Shown one piece after another: positions 2,079 to 18,158 of a DNA stretch of 23,110 nt. The stretch comes from a virus. The translations under genes and the position numbers were made by a program. Position 1 is the first letter of the stretch, and each line of letters opens with the position of its first letter. Under the pieces are notes generated by a model. That model was not told where the DNA came from, did not search any database, and was given only the letters and a program-made list of their open reading frames with translations. Location: IMG/VR virus record IMGVR_UViG_3300012861_000029; one strand, written 5' to 3'.

Positions 2079-2164
2079 GAGTTGTTGTGGCTGATGCTCG
2101 CCTTGGCGGCTCTGGCACCGCTCCTGCACCGGTGCGTTCCCCCGCAACAGCAAAGGAACGCACC

Positions 2165-2515
2165 ATGGTAGACACGTACGATCGCATCGACCTGACCGGC
2201 CCTTGGGCCGGTTTTGGTTTTCAGGGAGACCGGTTTTTCAGCCCCGAAGGCCACGACTTCAATCCAGAGGAATTGCTTTGGCTGTCGCTGACCTTCAACC
2301 TCGCCCGCGAGTGGCGGCTAATGATGGCCGAGGAACGCGCAGGACGCGCCACACGGGCCACACGGGCCACGGACGGCTGCGAGGTCATCCACCTGCGACA
2401 CATTCTCCTGCGGCGCAAGGAAAGGCGGTTATCCACGATGGGCGGCGCGAGGTTCGCCGACCCAGCAAAGGCAGTCCGAGCGACCAGACGGCACAGCCGC
2501 TATCGGCGCGGGTGA
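2165..2515 (+). CDS. Phage protein, DUF3653-like
   Basis: ATG at 2165 is preceded by AAAGGAA. WAGFGFQGDRFFSPEGHDFNPEELLWL resembles the DUF3653 family seen in Xanthomonas/Xylella filamentous phages (from memory). The longer 2087 start crosses no RBS. Confidence 0.6.
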   Translation: MVDTYDRIDLTGPWAGFGFQGDRFFSPEGHDFNPEELLWLSLTFNLAREWRLMMAEERAGRATRATRATDGCEVIHLRHILLRRKERRLSTMGGARFADPAKAVRATRRHSRYRRG

Positions 2516-2525
2516 AACGTTGTCC

Positions 2526-2546
2526 GTAGGGGGCCAAGCCCCCTAC
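2526..2546. terminator. Perfect 9-bp GC-rich hairpin, GTAGGGGGC-caa-GCCCCCTAC
   Basis: It lies 11 nt after the stop at 2513-2515. There is no U-tract. It could act as a terminator, or as a phage ssDNA origin or packaging hairpin. Confidence 0.4.
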
Positions 2547-2583
2547 ACCCCTACAATGCCGGCTTCAACCACAGGGGGAAACC

Positions 2584-2901
2584 ATGAACTACCGACCGCC
2601 CAGCCCACGCGAAACCTATCAAGGCCTTTGGTGGCAAATCGCCCTGGGCATCTTCGTCGGCCAGCTGATGATTGCGGGCCTCGCCGCGGTGCTCGCCTTC
2701 GCCTTCGGCTTTCTGGCCCTCAGCAGCATTTCCGCAGCGCTGCCGCGCACCAGCCATCACGCGACGGTGCGACTACCGACTGTGACACCGTTTGCCCCAG
2801 CGACGCCGCGCGCACTTGAGGCTGGCGAACGCTGCATCAGCCACAAGCGCTTCGAGCGCCTGCCCAACGGCTGGCAGGAATTGCCGAACGATCCCTGCTG
2901 A
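2584..2901 (+). CDS. Small membrane protein (phage accessory, function unknown)
   Basis: Strong RBS AGGGGGAAACC before the ATG. One clear hydrophobic segment (WWQIALGIFVGQLMIAGLAAVLAFAFGFLAL). Its stop abuts the convergent zot-like stop. Confidence 0.6.
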   Translation: MNYRPPSPRETYQGLWWQIALGIFVGQLMIAGLAAVLAFAFGFLALSSISAALPRTSHHATVRLPTVTPFAPATPRALEAGERCISHKRFERLPNGWQELPNDPC

Positions 2902-4227
2902 TCACATGTCCAACGTCGTGGGCGGCGTGTACGACTCGGCCTTATAGCCCGGCGATTCGGGGAACGTGCCCTGCACTCGGGCCTGCTTTCCGATGGTGGC
3001 GCCAGAGAGGCCGGCACCGCCCCCGGCGTCATTCGCTGCGCTCACAACGCCGGGAGCAGCGCCGCCCGGAGAGAGGTTGTACAGACGAGCATCGGCCTCG
3101 CGCACTGGCGCGGTCCAAGGCCACGCCGTGGCGATCAGCACATGCTCGCCAGCAGCCAGTCGCACGCCGTAAGACTCGACCTCAACCACGAAGCCCAGCG
3201 CTTCCAGCTGGCGCAAGTCCAGTTGCTCCACGATCACGCCACTGGTGTCGATCCACTGGACCCATGCGCGCACCTCCGTGCCGACCTGGGCGACGGCTGC
3301 CAGCCTGATACGCCCCTTGTCGCCGAGGTCGACCACGTAGCGTTGTTCCGGGCGAAGATCAGCCAACGGATCGACTACGGCTTTTGCGACCGCCTGCCCG
3401 GGCGCTGGCACGACCTCGCCGGGCTTGAACACCTGCCCCACAGCCGGAGTCGCACTCGGCCCCGCCGAAGCGCTCTGCGCCTTGTGGTGATCGGCCTTGC
3501 CCTTAGAGAAGTAGTGCACCAGCCCCATCACGCCTAGCGCACCGGCGGCGATGAAGAACACCGCCTTGACCGCGATGGCGGCCCACAGCGTTTTCCCGCC
3601 TTCTTCGTACACCTCGACGTTCTCCGCGCCCGGCGCATAGCCCTCATACAGGGGAAAAATCGCCGGATCGTACTTGAGCGTCTGGCCACCGACCTTCTCA
3701 AACTTGCCCGCGCTGACCGTGTGGAAATACGTCACCCGGTAGCGGCCCTTCATGCCTACAGCCGTCAGTTTCTGAAAGCTGTGTTTCTTCTCGATACGGG
3801 CCTTCACCGCGCTATGCAGGCGGTTGATCCACTGGGTCAGGATGACCGCATCGCCGCCGTTCTGGCCCAGCAGCGCCCAAAAATTCTCGACCTCTGGCGG
3901 CAGCGGCTTGCGCTCATTCACGTAGAACTCGTGGACCTCATCGATCACGACCAAAGCGTCCTTGAATCGATCATCAATGCGCCACTGCCCGCTTTCCGCG
4001 TCGCGATGGCACACGAACATCGACACCACGTCCTTGGTATCCACCACCACCAGCAGCGCCCGCACATCGTCTTCGCTCATGCCCAGGTGCGCGGCGATCC
4101 GGTCATGCCGCAGCCCGTTGAGCCGCGCAAACACGGTCCGACCCTTCTTGAGCGCCGGGAGAATATGGTTCTTCACCGCATCGTAGGACTTGCCCGCACG
4201 GGGCACCCCTTCATTGAAAACAAGCAT
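2902..4227 (-). CDS. Filamentous-phage assembly ATPase pI / zonula occludens toxin (Zot)-like protein
   Basis: MLVFNEGVPRAGKSYDAV carries a Walker A P-loop, and VVIDEVHEF a Walker B. A central TM segment (LWAAIAVKAVFFIAAGALGVMGLV) follows. The ATG at 4225-4227 overlaps the upstream stop (TAATG). The track ORF from 4536 is over-extended. Confidence 0.9.
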   Translation of the reverse strand: MLVFNEGVPRAGKSYDAVKNHILPALKKGRTVFARLNGLRHDRIAAHLGMSEDDVRALLVVVDTKDVVSMFVCHRDAESGQWRIDDRFKDALVVIDEVHEFYVNERKPLPPEVENFWALLGQNGGDAVILTQWINRLHSAVKARIEKKHSFQKLTAVGMKGRYRVTYFHTVSAGKFEKVGGQTLKYDPAIFPLYEGYAPGAENVEVYEEGGKTLWAAIAVKAVFFIAAGALGVMGLVHYFSKGKADHHKAQSASAGPSATPAVGQVFKPGEVVPAPGQAVAKAVVDPLADLRPEQRYVVDLGDKGRIRLAAVAQVGTEVRAWVQWIDTSGVIVEQLDLRQLEALGFVVEVESYGVRLAAGEHVLIATAWPWTAPVREADARLYNLSPGGAAPGVVSAANDAGGGAGLSGATIGKQARVQGTFPESPGYKAESYTPPTTLDM

Positions 4228-4553
4228 TACCAGATCCCCAGCGTCAGCACCCGACGCACGATGTAGAAGATCATCGCCGCGCCCAGCATGGTCAACGCCG
4301 GGCCCACCTGAAATACCTGGGCGAACCACAGCGCCGTGTTGCCCGCCTGCCCCATCATCCCGCCGATGCTCTGCCCCTGCATGAAGCTCGGCAACGGCAG
4401 CTTGTCCAGCACATACAGGATCATGCCCAACGACTGTTCCAGCCACATCACGAACAGGTCGCCAACGAAAGTGACCACGGCCTCCCACACGTCCTTTATT
4501 GCGTCCCACAACCACTGAGTGAGATCTGTCAACCAACCGGCTTGCATGTTCAT
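4227..4553 (-). CDS. pVI-like minor coat protein (DUF2523-like)
   Basis: [17 protein letters not shown]... is a hydrophobic 108-aa protein sitting between the pIII-like and pI genes. Its start overlaps the upstream stop (TGATG at 4551-4555). Confidence 0.65.
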   Translation of the reverse strand: MNMQAGWLTDLTQWLWDAIKDVWEAVVTFVGDLFVMWLEQSLGMILYVLDKLPLPSFMQGQSIGGMMGQAGNTALWFAQVFQVGPALTMLGAAMIFYIVRRVLTLGIW

Positions 4554-5803
4554 CAGGTCACCGCGATGCGAATAGCGAAATAGGCCGCGATCGCCAAGAT
4601 CACGAAACCACACGCCTGCAAGAACACCAGAAAGTCGCCGCTACAGTGCCCGCTGTAGTTCATGGCAGACCACCACTTTGTGCCCGGGATGGAGAACACC
4701 GGGCAACTTCCTCCGCCGGGCAGCGTCATGAAGGTACTGATGCCGCCCACGATGCGCGTTTGCTGCACCGAACCCATGAACTGATCCAGTACCGACGAAA
4801 CAGTCTTCTCTGACTTCGTGTAGAGCTTGCTGCGCTCCGCACCAGCGCCCGGGTCGTCGTCGTCACCATCGTCGCCGCCATCACCGCTGCCGCCGCTACC
4901 CGAGCCCGAGCCGGTCCCATCCCCCTTGCCCGTGCCGTCCTTGCCATAGGTGCTGTCGAACGTGGTGATATTGCTGGTAGTCGAAGCACCGCCGTTGGAC
5001 GAACTCGTTACCTGGCCCTGCCCGCTCACAGACCAATCGCCGCCATTGGCGGGAGGATCCTTGGGCGCGTTTATCTGAGCGCCCTCAGGCGACTTCGTGG
5101 CAGCCTGATTGCCGCTCTCTGCCGTCTTAACGCCGCTCTCGCCGGGCGACCAACAGAACTGTTTACCTGTAGACGCCGTCGCGCACGTCTTTCCGTCAGC
5201 GCGCACACACTGCGTCAACGTTCCGGTTTGAACGCACCTCTCTTGATCGCCGAGCGGCGAACTCGGGCCACCCACTCCATCGCCAACCGTGCACGCCTGA
5301 CCGGTCGGCGACATCTTGCTGGCCTTAGTGATCGTCACGCCCCCAACGGTCACAACGTCCCATGTGCCGCTAGTGTCCACTGCGAAGCCGCAACCACCCG
5401 AGCAGGCTCCCGCGTTGCCCTGGACACGTACATTCTGCAAGGCAGGCTGGCTCGCGCAGCTCTTCGTTGTATCGAAATAGAACTCAACACGATTCATGTA
5501 AGACGTCAGGTTCCAGAAGCTGCCACCCGGCGCACCCGCAGCACGCGCTTGGTATGCCCCATCCACCGAAGGGCACCACGCATAGGCACCCGCGTATAGG
5601 CTGCCGTTTGACGTAATGCCCGACTGGATCAAGACGGACACTGCCTGCGAGGCGTACGACATGCAGGACGAGTAGGCAGAACCTTGGGGGCACTTGTTCG
5701 CGAAAGTACACAAGTCGGCCGGAACATTGACTGCGGCGGCGAACGCAACGCGCGGCGCAAGCGCCAGCAACGCTACCAGCAGCACGGCAAGCACCCGGAT
5801 CAT
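4553..5803 (-). CDS. pIII-like adsorption / minor coat protein
   Basis: It has a signal peptide ([24 protein letters not shown]), a Cys-rich N-domain, a Gly/Ser/Asp linker ([26 protein letters not shown]) and a C-terminal membrane anchor ([16 protein letters not shown]). The ATG at 5801-5803 forms an ATGA overlap with the upstream micro-ORF. Confidence 0.8.
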
Positions 5804-5874
5804 GCGTCTAGCCCCTTGACACCCGCGATGCCGCACAGCGCGCCTACGAAGCCACAGAACAGCAGAAAGATCAT
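5800..5874 (-). CDS. 24-aa hydrophobic micro-ORF (pVII/pIX-like candidate), absent from the ORF track
   Basis: Hand translation gives [33 protein letters not shown] lies upstream, and its stop overlaps the pIII-like ATG. Confidence 0.45.
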
Positions 5875-5932
5875 GTCTCGCTCCCAGAAAAGGCGAAGGC
5901 GGCACCGAAGTACCGCCCTCCCCTTGCCACCA

Positions 5933-6061
5933 TCAGCCGAAGAAACCGGCCACCTTCTTCGCGCACCACTTGGTGAAGCCGACCAGGGCGATCAGCGCGG
6001 CAGCGCCGGTGATGGCCACGACGGCGTCGGCGGTGCTCAGGCCACTGAGGATGTCATCCAT
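5933..6061 (-). CDS. Major coat protein (pVIII-like), 42 aa, absent from the ORF track
   Basis: AGGAGA RBS 7 nt upstream. Hand translation gives MDDILSGLSTADAVVAITGAAALIALVGFTKWCAKKVAGFFG, with an acidic N-terminus, a hydrophobic core and a basic C-terminus, as expected for an inovirus major coat protein. Confidence 0.8.
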   Translation of the reverse strand: MDDILSGLSTADAVVAITGAAALIALVGFTKWCAKKVAGFFG

Positions 6062-6091
6062 TGCAATTCTCCTTTCATTGGTTGCGCCAGC

Positions 6092-6337
6092 TCACTTGAA
6101 CATCGCGGCGACGGAGCCGGCCAAGCGCCCCGCGACGAAACACACCAGCACCGCGCCAAAGCACGTGCTGAACCACAGCGCCGCGTCGCCCACGTCGGGC
6201 GGCGTCAACGCCTGTTGCACCAGCGAATACACGCCGTACTCGCTGCCAGTGACCAGCACGTAGCCCGTGCACTCACTGACCGCCTGCCCGGTGGGGGCAA
6301 GCGTTCCGTCAGCACGAAGGGCTACGCACAGGGCCAT
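6092..6337 (-). CDS. Hypothetical phage membrane / minor coat candidate
   Basis: An 81-aa ORF between the ssDNA-binding and coat genes, with a C-terminal TM segment (ALWFSTCFGAVLVCFVAGRLAG). No clear RBS; assigned by position only. Confidence 0.5.
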   Translation of the reverse strand: MALCVALRADGTLAPTGQAVSECTGYVLVTGSEYGVYSLVQQALTPPDVGDAALWFSTCFGAVLVCFVAGRLAGSVAAMFK

Positions 6338-6340
6338 GGA

Positions 6341-6619
6341 TTACTTCGCGCTCTTGGAGGCGAGGTCCGGAATCAGGCGGATGCGGCGACCGAATTCCAG
6401 CCCGCCGAACTTGCCGCTCTCCAACGAAGCCGGATCGATGACGTAATCACCCGGGATGTACGGGCGCTGGTCATCGTCCAGCGTGAGCTTGAACGGCAAG
6501 GGGAAATCTCCCTCGCGGATCACAGCGGCCTTCTGCTCTCGAAACGAGACAGCCGCCTTGCCCTCGCGGGCGGGGAACGAACGCGTTTCGACCGCATCGG
6601 TCATGACCTGGACTTTCAT
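6341..6619 (-). CDS. Probable ssDNA-binding protein (gV-like)
   Basis: The start MKVQVM has a GGAAGGTGG RBS, and its ATG overlaps the Rep stop (ATGA at 6616-6619). The 92-aa size and position right after Rep fit gV. Assigned by synteny rather than by motif. Confidence 0.55.
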
Positions 6620-7650
6620 ATTTGAACCACCTTCCACGCTATTGGCCGGCCCCCTAGGAGAGTTACGCGCCACGGACTGGGCCAGTATTCGCCCGTGAGC
6701 TTGTCGAACCATCCGCCCTTTGCCTTGCGAATGTCCGCGTCAACGCCGAGCACTTCGCGTGCCTCGACAGATGCTTTCCACCAGCGCAATTCGCGCTTGC
6801 TTTCTTCGTTCAAACCACCGCAGCCATGCGTACGGAACCCCTTCGGGAACGCACCAGCGATGAGCGACGTGAACTTGCTCGCGTACTTGGCGAGATAGCC
6901 AACCGCGTTGCGCGCACGCTCCATCTTCGTGGAGCCATGCGGCCACCAGCCCTTTTCGTCAGGCCGTCCAAACCAGATGCCGCGCGGAACCCATATCAGG
7001 ACGTGATAGTGCGGGCGTCCGCGCTGGGTGAGTTCGCCCACCCATAGGTAACGGAACACTTCACCTGCGAACCGTCGGGCCCGAGAGACAAGGCGATTGA
7101 AGAACCGCCGCATTGCTCTAAATAGCTCGCTAACGTCACGAGGGCTCGCACAGCTTCCGTCTCGGTAAGTGAGCGTGAGCATGTACCACGCGCCACGCCG
7201 CGACCCTTTTTGCGTTTCTTGCTCATGGAGCCTCGCGCTCGTTATCACGGACTTACGCAGCCGCTGCGCCCGCGCTTGCAGCGGGTCAATTTCAATCGCT
7301 ACACGACCGGTCTTCGCCGTGTCGTGACCACTTGTTTTGTAATGGACAAGCCCAAGGGCGAGCGCTTCGCGCTCGCCCTCCGAGGTCAGCGCGAGCGGAC
7401 CGCCCGCAGCCATGAATGAGGCAACAGAAGCCGTGCTAGCCCGCTTCTGGCGGGCGATGGTTTCCGACGCGAGTTCAGCACGACGCGACGCCGCCTGATG
7501 CTGTGCGACGTACGCGTCAATGTTGTCCAGGCGCGGCGGTCCAGCCTCGGCCATGCGGATGCGCGCATCGCGCGACGTGCACGCAACGCACAAGCCGCCC
7601 GGGAAGGCGTACGTGATTGGATCACCGCAGAAGTTGCAGGCCCGGCTCAT
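6616..7650 (-). CDS. Rolling-circle replication initiator (HUH endonuclease, gII/RstA-like)
   Basis: ATG at 7648-7650 with a GGAAGG RBS. It has an N-terminal CxxC...CxxC pair (CNFC, CVAC), an HUH motif (RPHYHVLIW) and a YxxK motif (GYLAKYASK). The 462-aa track ORF is over-extended across two small upstream ORFs. Confidence 0.85.
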
Positions 7651-7832
7651 GCGGCCTTCCGACGCAGCCGCAGCAGGCGCCGATTCGCACGCCAGATCCA
7701 GAACGCTTCCCGCATGCCATCGCGCACAAGCGATACACCGCCAGCGCCAACGAACGCACCAGCGGCAGCGGTCCAGAACAGCCACTTGACGAACTGGCCG
7801 AGTTCTTCGGGCGACGTGCAGAAGGTGCTCAT
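7647..7832 (-). CDS. Small phage membrane protein (hypothetical)
   Basis: 61 aa with one TM segment ([17 protein letters not shown]) and ATGA overlaps at both ends. Confidence 0.5.
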
Positions 7833-8032
7833 GCTGCACGCTTCCAGTCGCGCTCATCGGCGCGCTTCTTGCCCAGGGTGCGATTTGCCTCGGCCACCAG
7901 TGCGGCCGCACGGTACTTGCTGTCCAGCTGCGCCAGCCGGCGCTCGCCACACCACGCACAGAAACGCGCGAGCCCTGCGGCCACGGCGAACGCCGCAGCG
8001 GCAAGGCTCAGAATCATGATCAGATCCAGCAT
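7829..8032 (-). CDS. Small phage membrane protein (hypothetical)
   Basis: The start [20 protein letters not shown] has a GGAGGGG RBS. It is 67 aa and is the first gene of the minus-strand phage operon. Confidence 0.5.
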
Positions 8033-8092
8033 CGGCCGATCCCCTCCCCTGCCCCCGAAGGACCCGCCCACCGGTCAGGGGGCCGGGGGCCG

Positions 8093-8163
8093 GGTGTCAC
8101 CAATTCGGTGACGGCGGGGAGTGTATGCTCCTAGGTGACACTACTGTCAACGGTTTGGTGACA
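8093..8163. promoter_or_regulatory. Divergent phage control region with four GGTG(A/T)CAC-type repeats
   Basis: GGTGTCACC at 8093-8101, GGTGAC at 8107-8112, GGTGACA at 8134-8140 and GGTGACA at 8157-8163. The last runs straight into the regulator ATG, which has no SD and may be leaderless. Confidence 0.45.
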
Positions 8164-8669
8164 TGAATTCGCTAAATAAATTGCTTGACAAGGCGCGGTC
8201 CATGTGTAGCCGCGATAGCGATGCCGCAGTTGCCGAGGCTCTTAAGGTGTCGCGACAGACGCTAATGCAGTGGCGAAATGGCGAACGTCGCATCACCGAC
8301 GAACACCTCACAGCGCTTATTTCGCTTGCGAAAGAGGATCAGTCCGCGTTTATGCGGATCCGCGAGGAGATGGCCGGAACACCGGCCGAGCGCAAGCTTT
8401 GGGGGTCGCTGTTGGACCGAATTGGCGCGGCGATGGTGGTGGTAGCGGTCGGGGCGGTCGCCCTGGCCCACCGCGACGCGCATGAAGGACTGCAAGCAGC
8501 CCTACCCCTGCTTGCTGTCGCTGAACCTATATACATTATGCGAAATACGATCTGGCCCGGGCGGCGGCCCGGCTTCGCTGGATCTGGCTTTGGATCAAGA
8601 CTTGCCTACCCACCCGGCGCCCCACGGATAATGTTGTACGCACCGAAGCTTCCCCAGCTTGCGCGCTAG
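8163..8669 (+). CDS. Phage HTH regulator (Cro/CI-like, DUF3693-like); its 3' end crosses the prophage junction
   Basis: HTH segment AAVAEALKVSRQTLMQWRNGER. Codons 1-128 (8163-8546) are phage DNA. The last 40 codons are read from DNA beyond the dif-like repeat. Confidence 0.65.
   Translation: MNSLNKLLDKARSMCSRDSDAAVAEALKVSRQTLMQWRNGERRITDEHLTALISLAKEDQSAFMRIREEMAGTPAERKLWGSLLDRIGAAMVVVAVGAVALAHRDAHEGLQAALPLLAVAEPIYIMRNTIWPGRRPGFAGSGFGSRLAYPPGAPRIMLYAPKLPQLAR
8519..8546 (-). repeat. Hybrid dif-like site (prophage junction with a degenerate XerD arm)
   Basis: The minus strand reads ATTTCGCATAA-TGTATA-TAGGTTCAGCG. The XerC arm and central region are identical to 2051-2078, and the XerD arm is diverged, as expected for a phage attP-derived half. 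Confidence 0.8.
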
Positions 8670-9270
8670 GCCTCCCCATTTGACGCAGTCAATTGTCCCC
8701 GTCCACGAACGGACGTACTCAACTCTCCCCAGCGTCAATTGATTGCCTCCGAGGACATGCGGACGAAGCAACAGTCGCGGACAATGTGTACGGAATTTCC
8801 AGAAGATGATGGTTCGCGGCCGCCTTAGTGACGGATGATAGCCGTGGAGCACATTCAGTTTCTATCGACATATCCTGGGCTAGCGTCCTTTGCCAGCTAT
8901 CCAAGCGGCATTCGCAGAAACTTTGGCGCGCTTTCTTGGTGAGCTGCGTGGCGGCTGATTACCGCCAAACAACCGTCCCATATCCGCCCAACAAAACCCC
9001 AAATCGCTTCCCACAAGCACCCCATACCTGACGCGCCGCCAACAAACCGCCCCAATTTCAGTGCTGCTACCAACAAGCCGCGCCAAATTTGTCTACTGCA
9101 TGAGGCGTGACCATTCCCAAGTAGGAACTGCCGCCGTCGATCGGCCAGACCATGGCCCCAGCTTGGATCTGCGTCCGGCTCTATGGGATGCCTTGCCGTC
9201 CGATCTGTAAACATAGCGGTGTCCACAATGAGCTCCGAGGGATGTCTGCCATGGGGCTCCAGTGGACCTG

Positions 9271-9298
9271 CCCTACCCTCGATAAATCTCCCTAATCC
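9271..9298 (+). repeat. 28-bp repeat, copy 1 (upstream of the patatin operon)
   Basis: ccctaccctcgataaatctccctaatcc matches 13225-13252 at 25 of 28 positions. It is followed by a C-rich block and an imperfect hairpin homologous to 13195-13225. Confidence 0.6.
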
Positions 9299-9549
9299 CT
9301 GCCCCTCCCCACAATGTCCGGCTCTGGCTCACAAGCAGACATCCACGAATAGCCAATGAATCACACGCATTGCACCGGAGCTACGGTCTGTCAGCGTTTC
9401 CCTGGCCCCGGTCTGCAATCCGCTAGGGGAGCGCGGTAATTGTGTCAAGATACAGCCTCGAAAGTCGTCAAAGGCCAAATCGAAAAAAACTCGCCAACGT
9501 AGTTAGCGTGCAAGCCAATATTAATCTCCTAGACAGTGAAACATAGATC

Positions 9550-10476
9550 ATGCCTAAAGACGATGGCGTCTATCGAATCTTGGCCTTAGACGGCGGGGGC
9601 GCCAAGGGCTTCTATACCCTAGGGGTCCTAAAGGAGATTGAGGCCATGGTGGGGTGCCCGCTGCATGAGCGGTTCGATCTGATCTTCGGGACTAGTACTG
9701 GAGCGATCATTGCCGCTTTGATCGCGCTCGGCTATCAAGTAGATCAGATCCACGAACTCTACAGATTGCATGTACCTAGGGTCATGGCCAGTAAGGGGGC
9801 CGCCGCTAAGACTTCCGCTTTGCGGGACTTGGCTGGAGAGGTGTTCGGGAACAAGACCTTTGACGATGTACGGACCGGTATCGGCATAGTCGCAACGCGC
9901 TGGGCCACTGAGAAGCCGATGATCTTCAAGGCTGACGTTGCACAAGCGCACGGTCGCAAGGCGACATTCAAGCCAGGATTCGGCGTGAACATCGCGGATG
10001 CCGTCCAGGCGTCGTGTTCCGCCTACCCCTTCTTCGAACGGAAGATCGTCACGACCTCCGACGGAAACAGGATCGAGCTGATAGATGGCGGCTACTGCGC
10101 GAACAACCCGACGCTTTTTGCGATCGCCGATGCAACGGCCGCGCTGAACAAGGAAAGAAAGGATATTCGCGTCGTGAACGTCGGCGTCGGCATCTATCCG
10201 GAGCCGAAGCCTGGTTTGCTGATGAAGATCGCGAAGAAGTGGCTTGCAGTCCAGTTGTTGCAAAAGACCCTGGAGATAAATACGCAGTCGCTTGACCAAC
10301 TGCGCGAAGTATTGTTCAAGGATGTCGCGACGATCCGGATAAGCGACACATTCGAACGCCCTGAAATGGCAACGGACCTCATGGAGCACGACCTCGGCAA
10401 ACTGAACATGCTTCGTCAATGCGGCAGTGAGTCGTTCGCTGCCCGCGAAGCGCAACTGAAAGAACTTCTTCTCTGA
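9550..10476 (+). CDS. Patatin-like phospholipase (CapV-like effector candidate)
   Basis: Oxyanion motif DGGGAKG (aa 14-20), nucleophile elbow GTSTG (aa 47-51, Ser49) and catalytic Asp in [10 protein letters not shown] (Asp179). Confidence 0.9.
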
Positions 10477-11384
10477 TGGAACCGAGGAACATGGGGATTC
10501 CTGAAAATCAACTCGACACTTGGTCCCATCAAGGTTCGGTCATGCAATCTGCAGCGACTTACAACGCGATCAAGAACGCTTTGGAATCCACAAACGCCGC
10601 ATACCATGCCAAGGACTTCAAGGTCTTCCTTCAAGGTTCGTACGGTAACGACACCAATATCTATGCCGAAAGCGATGTAGACGTCGTAATCCAGCTCGAC
10701 GACGTCTACTTCAGCGATGTGACCTCGCTGCCGCCGGCAGACAAGGAGGCTTATGACCGGGCTTTTGTTCCAGCGACCTATTCCTACGACCAATACAGAA
10801 GTGATGTAGTCAGTGCCCTTATCAGTCGATTTGCAACCGACGTCACAAATGGTCATAAAGCCATCGCCGTAGCGGCGAACGGCAACCGCCGCAAGGCCGA
10901 CGTCATTGCGGCAATGCAATTCCGTCGATACTGGAAGTTCAGAAGCGCTTATGACTCGTCCTATGATGAGGGAATCTGCTTTTTCACTTCCGACGGTCAG
11001 CAGATCGTCAACTACCCCAAGCAGCACTCTGAAAACCTGACCATCAAGCATCAAGCCAGCAACGGGTGGCTGAAGCCGATGATCCGCGTATTGAAGAACA
11101 TGCGAAGGAAGCTGGTCGCCGATGGCGTCCTGAACGCAAGCGTGGCACCTTCGTACTATCTCGAAGGACTGCTCTACAACGTACCTTCCGGAAAGTTCGG
11201 ACTGAGCTACGAGGACAGCTTTGTCAACGCGATTAACTGGATACAGTCAGAGGCCGACAAGAGCAAGCTGGTGTGTGCCAACGAACAGTATTACTTGCTT
11301 TGGGAAGGGCCCCCCACCTCGTGGAAACCGTCCAACGCGGAGGCGCTCCTCCAGGCCGTCATTAAGCAATGGAATGAATGGTGA
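10476..11384 (+). CDS. Pol-beta-fold nucleotidyltransferase, SMODS / CD-NTase-like
   Basis: The ATG overlaps the patatin stop (TGATG). Motifs: GS at aa 54-55, DVD at aa 67-69 ([24 protein letters not shown]), a third acidic residue in KADVIAA (Asp142) and a C-terminal [14 protein letters not shown] helix typical of this family (from memory). Confidence 0.75.
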
Positions 11385-11447
11385 CCCCTAGGCAGTCACC
11401 CAAGCGCCTCCACAACTGCTCGATCCGATTTTCGAAGGGAATGAAAC

Positions 11448-13193
11448 ATGAAAGGACGCACGATCTACCTCTTCATGTGGGGCTACCAGGACAGCTATAG
11501 GATCAGTCTTCAAGGCCTGGCCAGAGATGTCCTCTCCAAACTCGGAGTCGTGGACGATGCCTACGTCCTGCTTGTAGGCGCCCGCGCTCCTGGGAGCAAT
11601 AGCCCCAACCCCGTCTGCGTCGAGCCGGAAGACGGCCAATGGCCGCTGTCGCTCTTCGACGGCTTGCTCGAAAAAGTGGAGTCGAAATACCAGGGGCATC
11701 ACCTACAGACAGTATTCTACGGCGATGCCCCCAGCATGAGCGACAAGCCCGAATGGATTCGGCGCGACGCGGCGCGAATGGCGGTTGCCGATGCGCTGGA
11801 GCCCTATGACAAGGCCTACGAGGTAACGTCATTCTGCGGCGAGCCCAGGCGCATCGGAGACTACTACGTCACTCCGGTCATACAAGTCCCGACGGCGACC
11901 TTCGCCCAGTTTCCGCCCTTGTCGCCGCGGCCAGTGGGAGCATTCGAAAGAGGTTATGGATACCGCAGCCTGATCCATGCGGCGATCTATGCCGTGCTCG
12001 AAGAAGCAACCGGGAAGCTTCAGGCCCCGGAACCCGGGCGCCTTTTCCATGACGGTGTGAGGAACGCGGAGGAAATTGTCCGTGTAGCGGGAGAGAACTT
12101 CATGCATACGCCGGGTTTGTCGATCGACAGGCGGTACATTCATACCGATCTGTTCAAGATTCTGAATATCGTCTCCTCTCTTCTCTACGAAGGATCGAAA
12201 GGAATCGGTGACCTCGTAATCGTCGATCCCACGAACGCGGCGGTCGACTTCGCCTTGAAATTCGCCAGTCCCGTGCCGCTCCGGGAGCCACGCTGGATCA
12301 GGAAGGTCCTGCAGATGGCCGCGACCGGCGTCGGGATCATTGGGGACCATCAGAACATCTACGGCCTAGGCAGACTAAAGGAATCCCATAACCCTGCAGA
12401 ACAGGATGCGTTTATCGTCACCTTCGTTGACCACTTTCACTGGAAGCTGCGTTGCGGCGACCAAATGCTGATACGAAGCCACTATGGAGTACCCAGACTC
12501 CCGCAGGAACCCATCGACAAGAGGGCCTTTCTCAGTAGCTACGCGCGACTCTTCCCGCGATCCCTGCCAGAAGACGGACTGCGTGCATGGGGTCTACTGA
12601 ATGCACAGACCCGCATGGAGCATGGCAGCATGATTGTGTTCGCTGAAGACGCGGCCAGCGAGGCAGAACGACTCAGCAGGCAAGGCACGCCGATCACGCC
12701 AATCAACCTTACTGATGAGCTGCTTCAAAGCGTCAGCGGCATCGATGGAACGATACTCGTCGATCCCAGCGGGTACTGCCACGCTATCGGTGTCATCCTG
12801 GACGGAGATGCCAGCGAGGAGTGCATGCCATCAAGAGGGTCCCGATACAATTCCGGAGTAAGGTACGTGGGCTCCGGCAGCATCAAGAGACTGGCGGTCA
12901 TTGTTTCAGATGACCGCACCATCGATGTTATTCCCGCGCTGAGACGATTGGTCAGTCGGACATTGATCGAACGACACGTCGCCTTCCTCGAATCTGCAAC
13001 GCTCGACAACTATCACGATTCCAGGAGTTGGCTCGACAAGCACCGCTTCTACATCAATCCCGAGCAATGCGAAAGGATCAACGCGGCGCTTTCCCGCTTC
13101 GACAATCTCCCGAAGGAGGCAGGCCTGCTCTACTTCGAAACCGAGCGATTCGAAGCTCATCCAGAGATGGACGAAAGTTACCTAGTCATTTAG
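11448..13193 (+). CDS. 581-aa protein with a divergent DisA_N / diadenylate-cyclase-like C-terminal domain; the N-terminal ~390 aa are unassigned
   Basis: AGGGA RBS 7 nt upstream. Residues ~390-497 align by eye to the CdaA/DisA DAC domain: GSMIVFAE versus GALIVIE, IDGTILVD versus HDGAVIM, GSRYNSGVRY versus GTRHRAAVGI, and AVIVSDDRTIDVI versus TIIVSEETGGVSV. Confidence 0.6.
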   Translation: MKGRTIYLFMWGYQDSYRISLQGLARDVLSKLGVVDDAYVLLVGARAPGSNSPNPVCVEPEDGQWPLSLFDGLLEKVESKYQGHHLQTVFYGDAPSMSDKPEWIRRDAARMAVADALEPYDKAYEVTSFCGEPRRIGDYYVTPVIQVPTATFAQFPPLSPRPVGAFERGYGYRSLIHAAIYAVLEEATGKLQAPEPGRLFHDGVRNAEEIVRVAGENFMHTPGLSIDRRYIHTDLFKILNIVSSLLYEGSKGIGDLVIVDPTNAAVDFALKFASPVPLREPRWIRKVLQMAATGVGIIGDHQNIYGLGRLKESHNPAEQDAFIVTFVDHFHWKLRCGDQMLIRSHYGVPRLPQEPIDKRAFLSSYARLFPRSLPEDGLRAWGLLNAQTRMEHGSMIVFAEDAASEAERLSRQGTPITPINLTDELLQSVSGIDGTILVDPSGYCHAIGVILDGDASEECMPSRGSRYNSGVRYVGSGSIKRLAVIVSDDRTIDVIPALRRLVSRTLIERHVAFLESATLDNYHDSRSWLDKHRFYINPEQCERINAALSRFDNLPKEAGLLYFETERFEAHPEMDESYLVI

Positions 13194-13194
13194 T

Positions 13195-13225
13195 GAATGT
13201 CCGCTCTTGGCCAAAGCGGACATTC
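13195..13225 (+). terminator. Perfect 11-bp stem hairpin directly after the operon stop
   Basis: GAATGTCCGCT-cttggccaa-AGCGGACATTC starts 2 nt after the TAG at 13191-13193. No U-tract follows it. Confidence 0.5.
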
Positions 13226-13252: not shown

Positions 13253-13406
13253 GAATCTAAGGCATCGCTTCCAGTAACGCACGGCTCGACTCCGTATCAC
13301 TCCATTCGCGGCATTGCCCCCCCCTCCCCCACCTGAAGAAGCTGCCCAATGCTCTCGGCAGTCCTTTGCCCTATCATTGCTCCGGCATGGGGTGCAGGGG
13401 GTCGCC

Positions 13407-16400
13407 TTGAGCGTTACATCGGTCGAAGACAATTTCTGGTTCCTCAGTGGGCACGACCCCATGTTCTTGAAGCTCGCGTCTATGGCCGAGCAGGTCTTCG
13501 CCGCCGACCCCAATACGACGCTGATCAAGCTCCGCCAGCTCGGGGAGGCGTTTGCGAAGGACCTGGCGAGCCGAGCCGGCCTCCAGGTCGACGAGCGGGC
13601 ATCGCAGGCCGATCTCATCTTCCAGATCTCCCGGGAACTGCGGCTCGACCCGCGGATCCGGGAGCTGTTCCATGTCCTTCGCGTCGAAGGCAACAAGGCC
13701 ACCCACGGTTTCGCCACTCAACATCGCGAAGCGATGGACGGCCTGAAGGTCGCCCGCGAGCTGGCTGTCTGGTACCACCGCGCGTTCGGCCAGGACGCGG
13801 CAGATTTCAAACCCGGACCGTTCTCACCTCCCAAGGACCTGGCCGCTCCCCTGCGCGAGGTCCAGGCCGAGGTGAAGCAGCTCCAGGCCGAGCTTGACGC
13901 CGAGCGCAAGGCGCATGACGAAAGCCTGAAGCTGGCGGAGCTGCAGCAGGAGCAGTCCCAGCTACATGCCGCCCTGGCCGAAGCCATGGACGTGGAGGCA
14001 AGGCAGCAGGCCGCCTTGGTCGCTGAACGCGAACGCGAGCTTGCACAGCTGCGCGAGGGGTTCGAGCAGCGCATCGCACGGATGTCTCAGGCGTCGGATC
14101 CCCAGGGTGAGGACACCGGCAAGGTCCAGGCCGCCACCTACCGTGCCAGCCAGGCCTTCGACCTGAGCGAGGACCTCACCCGCATCCTGATCGACCAGCA
14201 GCTGTGCGATGCCGGCTGGGAAGCTGACTCACTCGAACTCACCCATGCCGGCGGCACCCGGCCCGAGAGAGGCGTCAACCGGGCTATCGCAGAGTGGCCG
14301 ACCCGGGTGCCTGGCGCGAACGCGGACTACGTGCTGTTCAGTGGCCTGGTGCCGGTCGCCATCGTCGAGGCCAAGCGCAAGCGGATCAACGTAGCCGACC
14401 GGATCACGCAGGCGGAGCGCTATGCACGCGACCTGGTTCCGTCCGGGGATCTGCAGTCCGCATGGCGGGAGGCGGGGCTCGCTGGTCCCTGGCCCGACGG
14501 CGAAGGCGGCGGCTTTCACGTGCCGCTGGCGTTTTCCTGCAACGGCCGCCCCTACGTCAGGCAGTTGGCCGAGCAGTCCGGCATCTGGTTCCGCGACCTG
14601 CGCCGCCCCTCCAACCTCAGGCGTGCCCTGCAGGGGTTCTATACGCCGGAAGGCATCGCCGACCTGCTCCCGCGTGACATCGACAGCGCACAGTCGCGGC
14701 TGGCCCAGGAGGGCATGGCCTACCTGCGCCTGCGCGACTACCAGCAACAAGCCATCCAGGCGGTCGAGGACGCCATGGCCGCCGGCCATCGTACCTGTCT
14801 CCTGGCCATGGCCACCGGCACCGGCAAGACCCGGACCATCATCGGGCTGATCTACCGCCTGCTGAAAACCGAGCGCTTCCGCCGGATCCTGTTCCTCGTC
14901 GACCGCTCCGCACTCGGAGAACAGGCCCAGGACGCCATGGGCGAGATGCGCCTGGAGCAGAACCAGACGCTCTCTCAGATCTACAACCTGGACGGCCTGC
15001 AGGACACATCCACCGCGGACGAGGCGCGCGTGCAGGTGGCCACCGTGCAGGCCATGGTCCGTCGCATCTTCCAGTCAGACGCCCCTCCCCCGATCGACAC
15101 TTTCGACTGCATCGTCGTGGACGAGGCCCATCGCGGCTACACCCTCGACCTGGAGATGACCGAGGGCGAACTGGCCGTCCGCGATCATGCACAGTACATG
15201 TCGCAGTATCGGCGCGTGCTCGACTATTTCGACGCCCACCGTATCGGCCTGACCGCCACTCCCGCCAAGCACACCACCGACATCTTCGGGAAGCCGGTCT
15301 ATACCTACAGCTACCGCGAAGCGGTCGCCGACGACTGGCTGATCGACCACGAGCCGCCGATCCGCTACGAGACCCTGCTCAACACCCGCGGCATCCACTT
15401 CGAGCGTGGCGAACACGTCAGCGTGGTCAACGTCCAGACTGGCGAAGTCGACACCGCGGAGCTGGAGGACGATCTCGACTTCAACGTCGAATCCTTCAAC
15501 CGCCGCGTCATCACCCCGGCCTTCGATCAGGTCATCTGTGAACAGCTGGCGCAGGAGCTGGATCCCGATGGCGATGAGAAGACGCTCATCTTTTGCGTAA
15601 GCCAGCCCCACGCAGAACGCGTGAAGCATCTGCTCGATGAGGCATTCAAAGCCGTCCACGGCGAACAATACAACCAGGCCAGCGTGGCCGTTGTCACGGG
15701 GCGCAGCGACAAGGTGGACGCGCTGATCAGGCGATACAAGAACGAGCGCCACCCCAACATCGCCATCACAGTCGACCTGCTCACCACCGGCATCGACGTG
15801 CCCGCCATCTCCAACTTGGTATTCATGCGCCGGGTCCGCTCGCGCATCCTCTACGAGCAGATGAAGGGCCGGGCCACCCGCCGCTGCGACGACATCGGCA
15901 AGACCGTCTTCCGCATCTACGATCCGGTGGACCTGTACGCCGCGTTGGAAGACGTGGACACCATGAAGCCGCTGGTCAAGGACCCTAACGTCAGCATCGA
16001 ACAGCTGCTGCACGAGCTGAAGGACCCACGCAGCCTCGCCACCCACGGCAGCAACGGTAACAGCCATGCGCAGGACGTCCTCGACCAGCTCGGCCAGAAG
16101 CTGATGCGCGTTCTGCGCAAGGCCGCGCATCGTGCCGCCGGCAAACCACCGCTGCGCGACAAGTTGAACCAGCTCGAGGCTGCGTGGGGTGTCGCGCCGG
16201 AGTGGCTGCATGCCCACCTCCACGACCTGGGCCCGCAGGCCTCCGCGCAGTTCCTGCAGCAGCAGCCGCTGCTCCTACAGCAGCTGGCCGAGGTCGGCGC
16301 CCTGCTCGGTTCCGACAACTACCCGATCATTTCCACTCACCAGGACGAATTGATCGACCGTCAGCAGAACTACGGCGTGCACGAACAGCCGGCCGACTAT

Positions 16401-16889
16401 CTGGAGAGCTTCAACCGCTTCATCCGTGAGAACCTCAATCAATCGGCCGCCCTGAGCGTCATCGTCAACCGCCCCCGCGACCTCACCCGCGCCCAGCTGC
16501 GTGAAGTCCGCCTGCTGCTGGACGAACACGGCTTCACCGAAACCAACCTGCGCGGCGCCCTGCGCGAGAGCACCCAACAGGAAATCGCGGCCAGCATCAT
16601 CGGCCACATCCGCCGCGCCGCCCTGGGCGAAGCGCTGGTCCCGTTTGAACACCGCGTCGGCCGCGCCATGCAGGCCATCTACGCCAGCCGTGCCTGGACG
16701 CCGCTGCAACGGCGCTGGCTAGAGCGCCTCGCCCAGCAGCTCGTGCACGAGGTGGTGCTGGATCGCGAGGTGGTGCAGCGCAACTTCGAGGCCGACGGTG
16801 GCGCGCCCAGGCTCGACAAGCTGCTCGTTGGCCAGCTCGACCTGATCCTGAACGATATCAGGGAGCAACTCTGGGACCAGGCTGGTTGA
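13407..16889 (+). CDS. hsdR: Type I restriction enzyme R subunit with an N-terminal DUF4145-like domain and coiled coil
   Basis: PD-(D/E)xK nuclease motif (ADYVLF...VAIVEAKRKR); helicase motif I (LLAMATGTGKTRT), motif II (IVVDEAHRG), motif III (GLTATP) and motif VI (QMKGRATR); EcoEI-R-type C-terminal domain. The start is uncertain. TTG 13407 has an AGGGGG RBS 6 nt upstream. In-frame alternatives are GTG 13392 and TTG 13314, the track start, which would add a poly-Pro N-terminus. Confidence 0.9.
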   Translation: MSVTSVEDNFWFLSGHDPMFLKLASMAEQVFAADPNTTLIKLRQLGEAFAKDLASRAGLQVDERASQADLIFQISRELRLDPRIRELFHVLRVEGNKATHGFATQHREAMDGLKVARELAVWYHRAFGQDAADFKPGPFSPPKDLAAPLREVQAEVKQLQAELDAERKAHDESLKLAELQQEQSQLHAALAEAMDVEARQQAALVAERERELAQLREGFEQRIARMSQASDPQGEDTGKVQAATYRASQAFDLSEDLTRILIDQQLCDAGWEADSLELTHAGGTRPERGVNRAIAEWPTRVPGANADYVLFSGLVPVAIVEAKRKRINVADRITQAERYARDLVPSGDLQSAWREAGLAGPWPDGEGGGFHVPLAFSCNGRPYVRQLAEQSGIWFRDLRRPSNLRRALQGFYTPEGIADLLPRDIDSAQSRLAQEGMAYLRLRDYQQQAIQAVEDAMAAGHRTCLLAMATGTGKTRTIIGLIYRLLKTERFRRILFLVDRSALGEQAQDAMGEMRLEQNQTLSQIYNLDGLQDTSTADEARVQVATVQAMVRRIFQSDAPPPIDTFDCIVVDEAHRGYTLDLEMTEGELAVRDHAQYMSQYRRVLDYFDAHRIGLTATPAKHTTDIFGKPVYTYSYREAVADDWLIDHEPPIRYETLLNTRGIHFERGEHVSVVNVQTGEVDTAELEDDLDFNVESFNRRVITPAFDQVICEQLAQELDPDGDEKTLIFCVSQPHAERVKHLLDEAFKAVHGEQYNQASVAVVTGRSDKVDALIRRYKNERHPNIAITVDLLTTGIDVPAISNLVFMRRVRSRILYEQMKGRATRRCDDIGKTVFRIYDPVDLYAALEDVDTMKPLVKDPNVSIEQLLHELKDPRSLATHGSNGNSHAQDVLDQLGQKLMRVLRKAAHRAAGKPPLRDKLNQLEAAWGVAPEWLHAHLHDLGPQASAQFLQQQPLLLQQLAEVGALLGSDNYPIISTHQDELIDRQQNYGVHEQPADYLESFNRFIRENLNQSAALSVIVNRPRDLTRAQLREVRLLLDEHGFTETNLRGALRESTQQEIAASIIGHIRRAALGEALVPFEHRVGRAMQAIYASRAWTPLQRRWLERLAQQLVHEVVLDREVVQRNFEADGGAPRLDKLLVGQLDLILNDIREQLWDQAG

Positions 16890-16973: not shown

Positions 16974-18158
16974 ATGACCGTACCCCGCTGGATCTGGCGG
17001 CAGCCCACCTGGCCCCGCTTCACATGGGATGCCACGGCGCTGGCCAGCCTGTTGCGCAACTGCCAGCAGGTGCAGGGCCAACTGCTCGGCATGGCCGGTG
17101 CCGCCACCGGCGACCTGCAGGCCGAGGAAGCACTCGACACCCTGCTCTCCAACATCGTCGACTCCTCGGCGATCGAGGGCGAGCAGTTGGACGTGGGTTC
17201 GGTGCGCTCGTCGCTGGCCCGCCGGCTGGGCCTGGTCGACGAACCTGCGCGCCGCACCACCGCCCACGCCGAAGGCCTGGCCGAGCTGATGCTCGATGCC
17301 ACCCGGCATGCCGACGCCCCGCTCGACCTGCCGCGCCTGCTGCAGTGGCATCGCTGGCTGTTCGCCGCCAGCGACGACCTCCTGCCGACGGGTATCCAGG
17401 TCGGTGCGCTGCGCGGCAGCGAGCCCATGCAGGTGGTGTCGGGACGCATCGATCGTCCCACCGTGCATTTCGAAGCCCCGCCTCGCGAAGGACTCGAAGC
17501 GCAGTTGGACGACTTCATCGCCTGGTTCAACGCCTCGCGCCAGGACAACACGCTAGATCCCCTGCTTCGGGCGGGCGTCGCGCACTTCTGGTTCGTCACC
17601 CTGCATCCCTTCGACGACGGCAACGGCCGCCTGACGCGCGCCCTTACCGACCTTGCGCTCGCCCAGGCACAGTCGCAGGTCATCCGTTTCCACGCCATGT
17701 CGGCCAGCATCCTTGCCGACCGTGCCGGCTATTACCGCGTGCTCGAAGCGAGCCAGAAGAACGGCCTCGACATCACCGCGTGGCTGCAGTGGTTCCTGCA
17801 CACCCTGCACGACAGCCTGACCCGCGCCCTGCACCGCATCGACCGCGTGTTGGCCAAGGCACGCTTCTGGCAGACCCACCGCGAACAGACGCTGTCGACC
17901 GAGCAGGTCAAGGTGCTCAACCGCCTGCTGGACGTCGGCGAGCGCGGCTTCGAGCAGGGCCTGACCGCGCGCCATTACCAGGCGATCGCGAAGGTCTCCA
18001 AACCCACCGCCACCCGCCACATCGCCGACCTGCTTGAGAAAGGCTGCATCCGCCGCCTGCCAGGTGGTGGGCGCAGCACCCGCTATGAGATCAACGCACC
18101 GGCACCGGGCATCTCGCTGCCGCCCTGCCCCACTCCCATGAAAGACCCCAAGGCATGA
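16974..18158 (+). CDS. Fic family protein (DUF4172 N-terminus, class II auto-inhibited type, C-terminal wHTH)
   Basis: Fic core HPFDDGNGRLTRAL; N-terminal inhibitory-helix motif SxxxEG (SSAIEGEQL); WIWRQPTWPRFTW N-terminus typical of DUF4172-Fic proteins. The stop overlaps the hsdM ATG (ATGA at 18155-18158). Confidence 0.9.
   Translation: MTVPRWIWRQPTWPRFTWDATALASLLRNCQQVQGQLLGMAGAATGDLQAEEALDTLLSNIVDSSAIEGEQLDVGSVRSSLARRLGLVDEPARRTTAHAEGLAELMLDATRHADAPLDLPRLLQWHRWLFAASDDLLPTGIQVGALRGSEPMQVVSGRIDRPTVHFEAPPREGLEAQLDDFIAWFNASRQDNTLDPLLRAGVAHFWFVTLHPFDDGNGRLTRALTDLALAQAQSQVIRFHAMSASILADRAGYYRVLEASQKNGLDITAWLQWFLHTLHDSLTRALHRIDRVLAKARFWQTHREQTLSTEQVKVLNRLLDVGERGFEQGLTARHYQAIAKVSKPTATRHIADLLEKGCIRRLPGGGRSTRYEINAPAPGISLPPCPTPMKDPKA

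Follow-up and report, generated by a model that had tools for sequence, protein, structure and literature searches.

A patatin, nucleotidyltransferase and predicted diadenylate cyclase cassette in a metagenomic virus record is very probably an orthologue of the anti-phage system DS-2

The DNA analysed here, referred to as the window, is the whole 23,110-nt stretch of the virus record IMGVR_UViG_3300012861_000029; the coordinates of its genes refer to the plus strand unless stated otherwise. Three genes at positions 9550–13193 form a real and intact operon: a gene for a capE-like patatin phospholipase effector (9550–10476, an open reading frame (ORF) of 308 aa), a gene for a cdnE-like cGAS/DncV-like nucleotidyltransferase (CD-NTase; 10476–11384, a longest ORF of 302 aa), and a gene for a 581-aa CdaG-type protein (11448–13193) with a DACNG domain, a DACNH domain, a predicted diadenylate cyclase (DAC) domain and, at the C terminus, a part made of helices. 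Judging from the sequence comparisons described below, this locus is very probably an orthologue of the DS-2 system, namely, a type I-like cyclic-oligonucleotide-based anti-phage signalling system (CBASS) in which CdnE and CapE are joined by an obligatory second cyclase that goes by the names DS-2C and CdaG. The three products are referred to as DS-2A, DS-2B and DS-2C, respectively, where the names are convenient.

A first-pass annotation, made from the letters of the window alone, had described the three co-directional genes as a tight unit, and the ORFs agree with this description. It had also reported that the stop codon of the patatin gene overlaps the start codon of the NTase gene. The sequence TGATG indeed spans the patatin stop and the start of the longest NTase ORF at 10474–10478. 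However, this overlap is probably an artefact of choosing the longest ORF, because the matches to NCBIfam, PADLOC and the PDB (RmCdnE) all begin at residue 6 of the NTase, because the E. coli CdnE begins at the Met equivalent to this residue, and because a separate gene call, taken from the source metagenome contig (ENA ERZ27245274, 23,146 bp), gives a protein of 297 aa whose ATG at 10491 is preceded by GAGGAA. With this likely start, the gap between the patatin and NTase genes is about 14 nt, and the equivalent gap in E. coli is 15 nt. The second gap was found as had been described: 63 bp at 11385–11447, with an AGGGA Shine-Dalgarno sequence at 11435–11439, 8 nt upstream of the third ATG. A conserved RNA element was considered for this spacer and rejected: the spacers of the relatives are 43–69 nt long, and their sequences are not conserved beyond close relatives. 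An Rfam scan of the window yielded no family at the gathering score. The lower GC content that had been noticed by eye is also real; it is 0.559 in the trio, as against 0.62 on average in the window, 0.657 in hsdR and 0.647 in hsdM. The contrast is likewise seen at the third codon positions, where the GC content is 0.67–0.70 in the trio and 0.85–0.87 in hsdR and hsdM.

The patatin protein retains every catalytic motif that had been listed for it: GGGAKG at residues 15–20 (the oxyanion motif), GTSTG at 47–51 with the catalytic Ser49, and DGG at 179–181 with Asp179; the Ser-Asp dyad (S49, D179) and the oxyanion motif of a patatin effector are thus present. It matches Pfam Patatin (E = 6e-30), the PADLOC model of the CBASS phospholipase effector (E = 3e-165), and the NCBIfam model DS2_1_antiphage (510 bits; cut-off, 400). 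Over its whole length, it also matches PDB 9iom, described as a 'cUMP-AMP-activated phospholipase' (CapE), with E = 4e-165. The identity to 9iom is about 83% as read off the alignment, and the BLASTP value against the same E. coli protein, WP_001593459.1, is 79%.

In the NTase, the catalytic residues were located at GS 54–55, D67xD69 and D142, the last of which is aligned to D129 of RmCdnE; the first-pass annotation had listed the GS...DxD motif and a third Asp. The protein was recognised by the PADLOC model of the CBASS cyclase (E = 2e-128) and by NCBIfam DS2_2_antiphage (457 bits; cut-off, 350), and PF26305 CD_NTase_C is assigned to the protein called on the source contig. All six PDB sequence matches are CdnE enzymes, the five strong ones being 6e0k, 6e0m, 7x4f, 7x4c and 7x4a; RmCdnE (6e0k) is matched at residues 6–302 with E = 2e-56. 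As placed by its nearest neighbours, the NTase belongs in clade E. One might instead take it for an MNT-type antitoxin or an aminoglycoside nucleotidyltransferase, since the Pfam SMODS match (24.9 bits) lies just under the gathering score of 26.5, covers residues 27–110 only (and is thus uninformative on the start), and is accompanied by a weak NTP_transf_2 match. The cyclase model, the RmCdnE match, the CD_NTase_C domain and the 75% identity to the E. coli CdnE (WP_001593458.1) refute this assignment, and its probability is practically negligible. The grouping with CdnE enzymes was a check that the first-pass annotation had proposed. Together with the two PADLOC matches and the 9iom match, it upholds the view put forward there that the locus is CBASS-like and encodes membrane lysis activated by a nucleotide signal.

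The product of the NTase can be predicted from its pocket. In RmCdnE, Asn166 reads the uracil acceptor, and the N166S replacement switches the product to c-di-AMP (PMC10442399). The (R/Q)xW motif restricts the donor site to pyrimidines. In the window NTase, Asn179 is the equivalent of Asn166, and the (R/Q)xW motif is absent, as in EcCdnE; the donor pocket is open, like those of EcCdnE and RmCdnE. Because N179 is kept and the (R/Q)xW motif is absent, we predict that the product is 3′3′-cUMP-AMP (cUA).

The 581-aa protein had been called DAC-like, and this proved apt: two Pfam domains and a predicted fold point the same way. The DACNG domain (11475–12104, residues 10–219; PF21752, E = 3e-61) is a putative sensor domain of unassigned fold family, with no significant structural neighbour in the PDB or BFVD. 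The DACNH domain (12147–12455, residues 234–336; PF21750, E = 1e-27) is a putative sensor or regulatory domain. A Foldseek comparison with the viral structures of BFVD for phage mimics of DACNG and DACNH gave nothing meaningful, and the profile–profile similarity between DACNH and DAC was not significant, the shallow alignment (effective number of sequences, 1.8) making this a weak test. No helix-hairpin-helix (HhH) or DisA-linker domain was matched by Pfam in DS-2C even at E ≤ 10. The approximately 350-aa N-terminal module is kept in all 30 aligned homologues; 630 homologues of DS-2C were found in the protein database. The NCBIfam model DS2_3_antiphage matches the protein with 776 bits (cut-off, 630).

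The DAC catalytic domain was placed at 12591–12944 (about residues 382–499) by two approaches. One is a published HHpred search on the E. coli orthologue WP_001593457.1, in which residues 382–499 matched Pfam DAC (PF02457) with 99.3% probability (PMC13092281). The other is a Foldseek search with an AlphaFold2 model built from the 30-sequence alignment. The mean predicted local distance difference test score (pLDDT) of this model is 70.7, with values of about 80–92 over residues 20–150, about 74–88 over residues 361–450, and below 50 in the loop at 452–465. The top 32 PDB matches of the model were all diadenylate cyclases (DacA, DisA, CdaA and DacM); for DacA 6gyx, the values were E = 4.6e-4, probability 1.0 and TM-score 0.54, and the set had probabilities of 0.99–1.00 and TM-scores of about 0.5 for single-domain targets. 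At the motif level, DGT at 433–435 occupies the position of the 'DGA' of DisA, its D433 being invariant across the 30 homologues, and RYN at 466–468 occupies the position of the 'RHR' of DisA. A DAC fold is thus predicted for the C-terminal domain, and the protein as a whole is of the CdaG class, with which it has in common the DACNG-DACNH-DAC arrangement and the association with CBASS; no difference was found from this class as it is described in the papers citing it. In comparison with the housekeeping enzymes DisA and CdaA, the likeness consists of the DAC fold (TM-score of about 0.5 and probability of 1.0 by Foldseek) and the retained Asp of the DGx motif. Several differences stand against this likeness: DS-2C has neither the HhH DNA-binding domain of DisA nor the transmembrane region of CdaA, its DAC domain lies C-terminal to two unrelated domains, RYN replaces RHR, the sequence has diverged beyond the reach of Pfam DAC, and the gene lies in a mobile defence cassette.

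The identity of the locus becomes clear when it is compared with the published system. The name DS-2 was introduced in the DefensePredictor study of DeWeirdt et al. (Science 2026; bioRxiv January 2025) for a phospholipase, a cGAS-like enzyme and a diadenylate cyclase cloned from E. coli (PMC13092281). The E. coli proteins are WP_001593459.1 (CapE), WP_016240615.1 / WP_001593458.1 (CdnE) and WP_016240614.1 / WP_001593457.1 (DS-2C); WP_001593457.1 is EcDS-2C as named in the Ragucci preprint. To WP_001593459.1, WP_001593458.1 and WP_001593457.1, the window proteins are 79%, 75% and 66% identical, respectively, collinearly and over nearly the full length, and no gap interrupts the 580 residues of the DS-2C alignment. 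All three exceed the equivalog cut-offs of NCBIfam (NF053870, NF053871 and NF053872). The gene order and orientation are the same; the spacers of the two loci, 14–15 nt and then 60–63 nt, are similar; and there is no difference in length for DS-2C (581 aa) or for the NTase when it is counted from Met6 (297 aa). The E. coli CapE, of 320 aa, differs in having an N terminus 12 aa longer than that of the window patatin. The catalytic motifs of the patatin and the NTase, and D433 of DS-2C, are kept in the window. Among 5,426 complete E. coli genomes, 18 carry the 3.6-kb block in one piece, with 99% query cover and 68% nucleotide identity, and the newer PGAP records of E. coli name the three products 'anti-phage phospholipase', 'anti-phage nucleotidyltransferase' and 'anti-phage protein'. 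The first-pass annotation had regarded the architecture as non-canonical, stating that a large DAC protein is not among the known CBASS accessories. This claim did not survive: the exact trio is DS-2 (PMC13092281), and the NCBIfam models and RefSeq 'anti-phage' names show that the locus already has a described class, which disposes of its novelty. The three-gene architecture, published, phage-tested and curated in NCBIfam, does not represent a new type of system.

In E. coli, the third gene is essential to the phenotype. The negative logarithm of the efficiency of plating of phage Bas1 was 4 with wild-type DS-2 (about 10^4-fold protection), 0.18 with D433A and −0.37 with R468A; thus, mutation of either of the two predicted DAC catalytic residues abolished the defence (PMC13092281). 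The Flagellimonas and Hymenobacter homologues of DS-2C were purified and found to make 3′3′-c-di-AMP (Ragucci et al. 2026). DeWeirdt et al. credit the association of CBASS with DAC proteins to the bioinformatics of Galperin 2023 (J Bacteriol e0002323; cited in PMC13092281), and Nabhani et al. (bioRxiv 2026) describe CdaG as a recently categorised DAC family found beside CD-NTases and 2TM-beta effectors.

Some points weigh against the reading of the window locus as DS-2 with an active second cyclase. The locus comes from a metagenome contig. Pfam DAC (PF02457) has no match in the window protein even at E ≤ 10, and it matches only 1 of the 30 homologues. The 30-sequence family profile found neither DisA nor CdaA among the PDB sequences, and a phmmer search of the PDB with the single DS-2C protein gave chance matches only, such as HMG-CoA synthase. 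The DAC call therefore stands on the medium-confidence AlphaFold2 model and the HHpred result for the orthologue, and the RHR motif is replaced by RYN. Finally, the published 'R468A' (PMC13092281, Table S11) finds no Arg468 in WP_001593457.1 or in the window protein: position 468 is Asn in both, and Arg occurs at 463, 466 and 472. The explanation is either a different numbering of the tested variant, WP_016240614.1, or an offset in the R468A label.

The distribution of relatives bears on whether the third gene belongs to the system. The closest copy in a genome, that of Pseudoxanthomonas putridarboris, has 91.5% nucleotide identity, and its homology to the window is confined to 9559–13183, from the start codon to the stop codon. 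The same limits hold in eight other genomes; in Pseudomonas sp. UFMG81 alone, the homology continues about 50 bp farther upstream and also enters the first arm of the hairpin described below. Since the homology ends at the gene ends, the three genes move as a compact, portable cassette. The order patatin–NTase–DAC is kept in 9 of 10 species-representative genome loci. We then added 79 metagenomic loci, in which every ORF was searched with hidden Markov models for patatin, CD-NTase and Cap15. A CD-NTase was found in 33 of the 39 loci having at least 2 kb on both flanks. Among those of them whose DAC protein is at least 60% identical, it was found in 25 of 25, and 22 of the 25 have the order patatin–NTase–DAC; the co-occurrence check proposed in the first-pass annotation thus turned out in favour of a unit.

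These results can be set against the idea that the locus is a two-gene type I CBASS followed by an unrelated third gene, either a passenger or a housekeeping c-di-AMP synthase. The idea has some basis: the PADLOC v2 CBASS models cover the first two proteins only; DefenseFinder labels the patatin of the E. coli locus as type I CBASS and its NTase by CBASS cyclase models, leaving the third gene unlabelled (PMC13092281, supplement); and the 63-bp gap and its own ribosome-binding site set the third gene apart. Nevertheless, the block of homology with the relatives always takes in all three genes and ends at the gene ends, a CD-NTase lies near every one of the 25 close DAC homologues, and NCBIfam curates the third gene as DS2_3. 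For the E. coli orthologue, the loss of defence in the DAC point mutants refutes the idea outright. We regard an unrelated third gene as scarcely credible.

The cassette is not uniform in its partners. One order variant, NTase–DAC–Cap15, was found in an Acinetobacter locus (L009) and confirmed by Pfam and PADLOC; the other variants are Cap15–NTase–DAC, a divergently transcribed Cap15–NTase pair beside the DAC gene, and DAC–patatin–NTase. DS-2C proteins that are 57–64% identical to that of the window are paired with Cap15 and with CD-NTases only 27–29% identical to the window CdnE. From this variety of effectors and cyclases, the DAC protein is a portable module, its constant partner being a CD-NTase. 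This picture adds to, and does not overturn, the indications already given by DeWeirdt et al. (fig. S9) and Nabhani et al. (Fig. 4g). In L009, L033, L034, L036, L041 and L055, DS-2C proteins of 49–64% identity have Cap15 (2TM-beta) partners in several orders and orientations, together with CD-NTases about 27–29% identical to the window CdnE, and in L009 the PADLOC OloA/OloB (Olokun) genes lie immediately upstream.

The core of the system has a close likeness in the literature. A type I CBASS made up of CdnE and CapE was reportedly described by Whiteley and colleagues in 2019. The window locus agrees with it in having a clade-E-like CD-NTase with the uracil-reading Asn (6e0k) and a patatin that matches the cUA-activated CapE over its whole length (9iom). 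As in that system, no Cap2/Cap3, HORMA/TRIP13 or other accessory gene of types II–IV was found by Pfam among the window genes. The difference is the third gene: it is required for defence in vivo, and publications on the two-protein core have largely passed over it.

The core pathway has been demonstrated in the E. coli orthologues, and we infer it for the window locus. Upon infection, CdnE would make 3′3′-cUMP-AMP; this would bind CapE dimers, which would then line up in filaments at the membrane as active phospholipases; and the destruction of the membrane by CapE would kill the cell before the phage cycle is completed (abortive infection). EcCdnE is known to make cUA, and it is cUA that drives the CapE filaments and the disruption of the membrane (PMC12804361, PMC13434031); both papers credit the filament mechanism to Wang, Li et al. 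2025. For the third protein, we tentatively favour a licensing role. DS-2C would be a regulated sensor-cyclase in which the DACNG/DACNH module gates the DAC domain, and its c-di-AMP would license the CBASS core as a positive signal that acts at the CD-NTase or together with it, and not as a ligand specific to CapE. As a conditional estimate, we hold this to be somewhat short of an even chance. The signal appears to be positive because strains carrying the catalytic DAC mutations were obtained and had lost the defence. An action at the level of the cyclase is suggested by the CD-NTase being the constant partner while the effectors vary, and a regulated synthesis is argued for by the N-terminal module being kept in all 30 homologues. 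A weak support is that the divergence of the DAC protein tracks that of the NTase (r = 0.89) more than that of the patatin (r = 0.31), as calculated for the 38 loci in which the DAC gene has both a patatin and a CD-NTase nearby, in nearly every case in the canonical order.

This licensing proposal meets its own difficulties. The correlation of 0.89 is confounded by gene adjacency and shared ancestry and is weak evidence. Whiteley and colleagues are also said to have found in 2019 that CdnE alone makes cUA in vitro. The purified DS-2C homologues needed no phage factor for their activity in vitro (Ragucci et al. 2026); in this preprint, the role of DS-2C 'remains an important goal', and that of Nabhani et al. 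takes a like view.

The activity without a trigger is what would be expected from the main rival to the licensing reading, namely, that DS-2C serves as a decoy against evasion. Here, constitutive c-di-AMP would saturate phage sponges (of the Acb2/Acb4 type) or nucleases (Acb1), so that cUA reaches CapE, and the CBASS core would work alone against phages without such counter-defences. Most Proteobacteria are not known to have housekeeping c-di-AMP signalling, and c-di-AMP would be orthogonal to the physiology of such a host. Acb4 binds c-di-AMP as well as other CBASS signals (Nabhani et al. 2026), and the portability of the DAC module among CBASS cores with different cyclases and effectors fits a function independent of the core. 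However, a constitutive decoy would need no conserved 350-aa DACNG/DACNH module, the minimal PanS DACs being without one, and Bas1, the phage against which the DAC mutants lost the defence, has no documented sponge in the literature consulted. Taken together, we consider the decoy explanation unlikely.

The same portability leads to a more general formulation, in which DS-2C is an add-on independent of the CBASS core and its c-di-AMP is a general anti-evasion or licensing signal with no specific effector or cyclase as its target. It could, for example, titrate phage sponges or nucleases, or report a phage cue sensed by DACNG/DACNH. The reason for considering it is that related DS-2C proteins (57–64%) serve cores whose CD-NTases are about 27% identical and whose effectors are patatin or Cap15. 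We give this formulation a possible but doubtful standing. If true, it would be a new accessory logic of CBASS, in which there are two cyclases and one signal protects or gates the other.

A DAC-fold enzyme that makes 3′3′-c-di-AMP in anti-phage immunity, often near CBASS, is also known from Panoptoo/PanDA (PanS + PanE; 2026 preprints), which is grouped here with Panoptes (mCpol + OptE), and this likeness suggests a guard arrangement, in which constitutive c-di-AMP would hold an effector off until sequestration by the phage releases it. DAC domains act in this way in Panoptoo/PanDA, and the E. coli DS-2 adjoins a DncV CBASS and an mCpol + Cap15 pair, unlike the window copy. The details do not fit, however. 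PanS is a stand-alone DAC of about 150 aa that constitutively represses a 2TM-beta effector, whereas DS-2C has 581 aa with sensor domains (DACNG/DACNH) and is linked to a CD-NTase. DAC activity counters toxicity in Panoptoo, whereas in DS-2 it is needed for defence, and the D433A and R468A strains were obtained, lost the defence and were not reported to be toxic. Moreover, CapE is positively activated by cUA, and neither a minimal stand-alone cyclase nor a Cap15-type/2TM-beta effector gene was found among the window genes. A guard arrangement is thus very improbable, and a licensing role of DS-2C continues to be our preferred reading.

The window locus is a metagenomic orthologue and one more natural variant of DS-2, and it adds little on the function of c-di-AMP; what remains of interest is the role of DS-2C only. 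In this respect, the comparative picture narrows the mechanisms, since the cassette limits lie at the gene ends, a CD-NTase is always near the close DS-2C homologues, and different effectors and cyclases can replace one another beside a conserved DS-2C. The host of the window copy differs from E. coli: it is a GC-rich metagenomic proteobacterium, and the nearest relatives of the locus are from Pseudoxanthomonas (92%) and Pseudomonas (81%). An orthologue from such a Xanthomonadales- or Pseudomonas-like host could serve biochemistry or host-range tests.

Two observations among the relatives deserve mention. In Scandinavium sp. UTDF21-P1B (L011), a perfect heptanucleotide tandem repeat, AGGTGGC × 12.3, lies over the start of the DS-2C gene (5929–6014 of that locus), and owing to this array, its NTase–DAC spacer is an exception in length, 127 nt. 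With a period that is no multiple of 3, slipped-strand events could turn the translation of this gene on or off, so that the accessory cyclase may be subject to phase variation. In E. coli strain 361 (L001, 5926–15593), DS-2 lies beside a DncV-CapV-Cap2-Cap3 type II CBASS and a pair of mCpol and Cap15-family genes (Panoptes-like), making three cyclic-nucleotide immune systems within about 10 kb.

Regarding the ends of the cassette, the first-pass annotation had noted that a perfect 11-bp hairpin closes the unit. The structure itself is sound: its stem is formed by 13195–13205 and 13215–13225 with a 9-nt loop, 2 nt past the stop codon of DS-2C; its folding energy is −19.1 kcal/mol (z = −4.96), and none of 200 shuffled sequences folded equally well. 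The hairpin has no T-tract (U-tract in the transcript), is not a textbook intrinsic terminator, and was not listed by the terminator scan. A conserved cassette terminator was rejected, because downstream hairpins are not enriched among 43 relatives (7% lie below the 5th percentile of the background), and only the first arm is common to the closest relatives (L010 and L058). The hairpin is real but local to the insertion in the window and is not a conserved part of the cassette. On the other side, the 880 bp upstream of the patatin gene (8670–9549) contain no called gene and have a lower GC content (0.55); no Rfam match was found there, and the region is not shared with the upstream region of any relative. 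The promoter of the operon and the junction of the insertion presumably lie within it.

The surroundings also distinguish the window copy from that of E. coli, since it adjoins an inovirus and an island of type I restriction-modification (R-M) and GmrSD genes. Upstream of the trio lies an inovirus prophage of about 6.5 kb, with Zot, a capsid protein, G7P, a single-stranded DNA-binding protein, a G2P-type Rep and a helix-turn-helix/DUF3693 repressor. It is bracketed (about 2100–8700) by two dif-like XerCD sites: a full 28-bp site at 2051–2078, ATTTCGCATAA-TGTATA-TTATGTAAGAT, and a second copy at 8529–8546 on the minus strand, a half-site with the XerC arm and the central region only. Both were identified with what we take to be the dif consensus. 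They are 6,468 bp apart, and two matches were found where 0.02 were expected. This looks like a filamentous prophage integrated by Xer at the dif site of the chromosome, with about 1 kb between it and the DS-2 cassette. We also considered the defence genes as a Xer-mobilised element and sought further dif-like sites, and only the two flanking the inovirus were found. Just upstream of the full site, a gene for a KfrA_N protein (a DNA-binding protein associated with plasmid partition) and a DUF3653 gene were found at 945–1877.

Downstream of the trio, Pfam identified hsdR, a gene with a Fic domain, hsdM, hsdS and the type IV enzyme GmrSD, so that the position in a defence island suggested by the first-pass annotation is confirmed. 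The HsdR encoded at 13314–16889 is unusually long, 1191 aa as the longest ORF and 1160 aa in the gene call, and it has an N-terminal DUF4145 ahead of the HSDR_N, helicase and EcoEI_R_C domains. Between hsdR and hsdM, within the type I R-M operon, lies a Fic/DOC + DUF4172 gene (16974–18158) whose C-terminal region is MarR-like and whose stop codon overlaps the start of hsdM. It may represent a toxin associated with the R-M system or an abortive-infection module.

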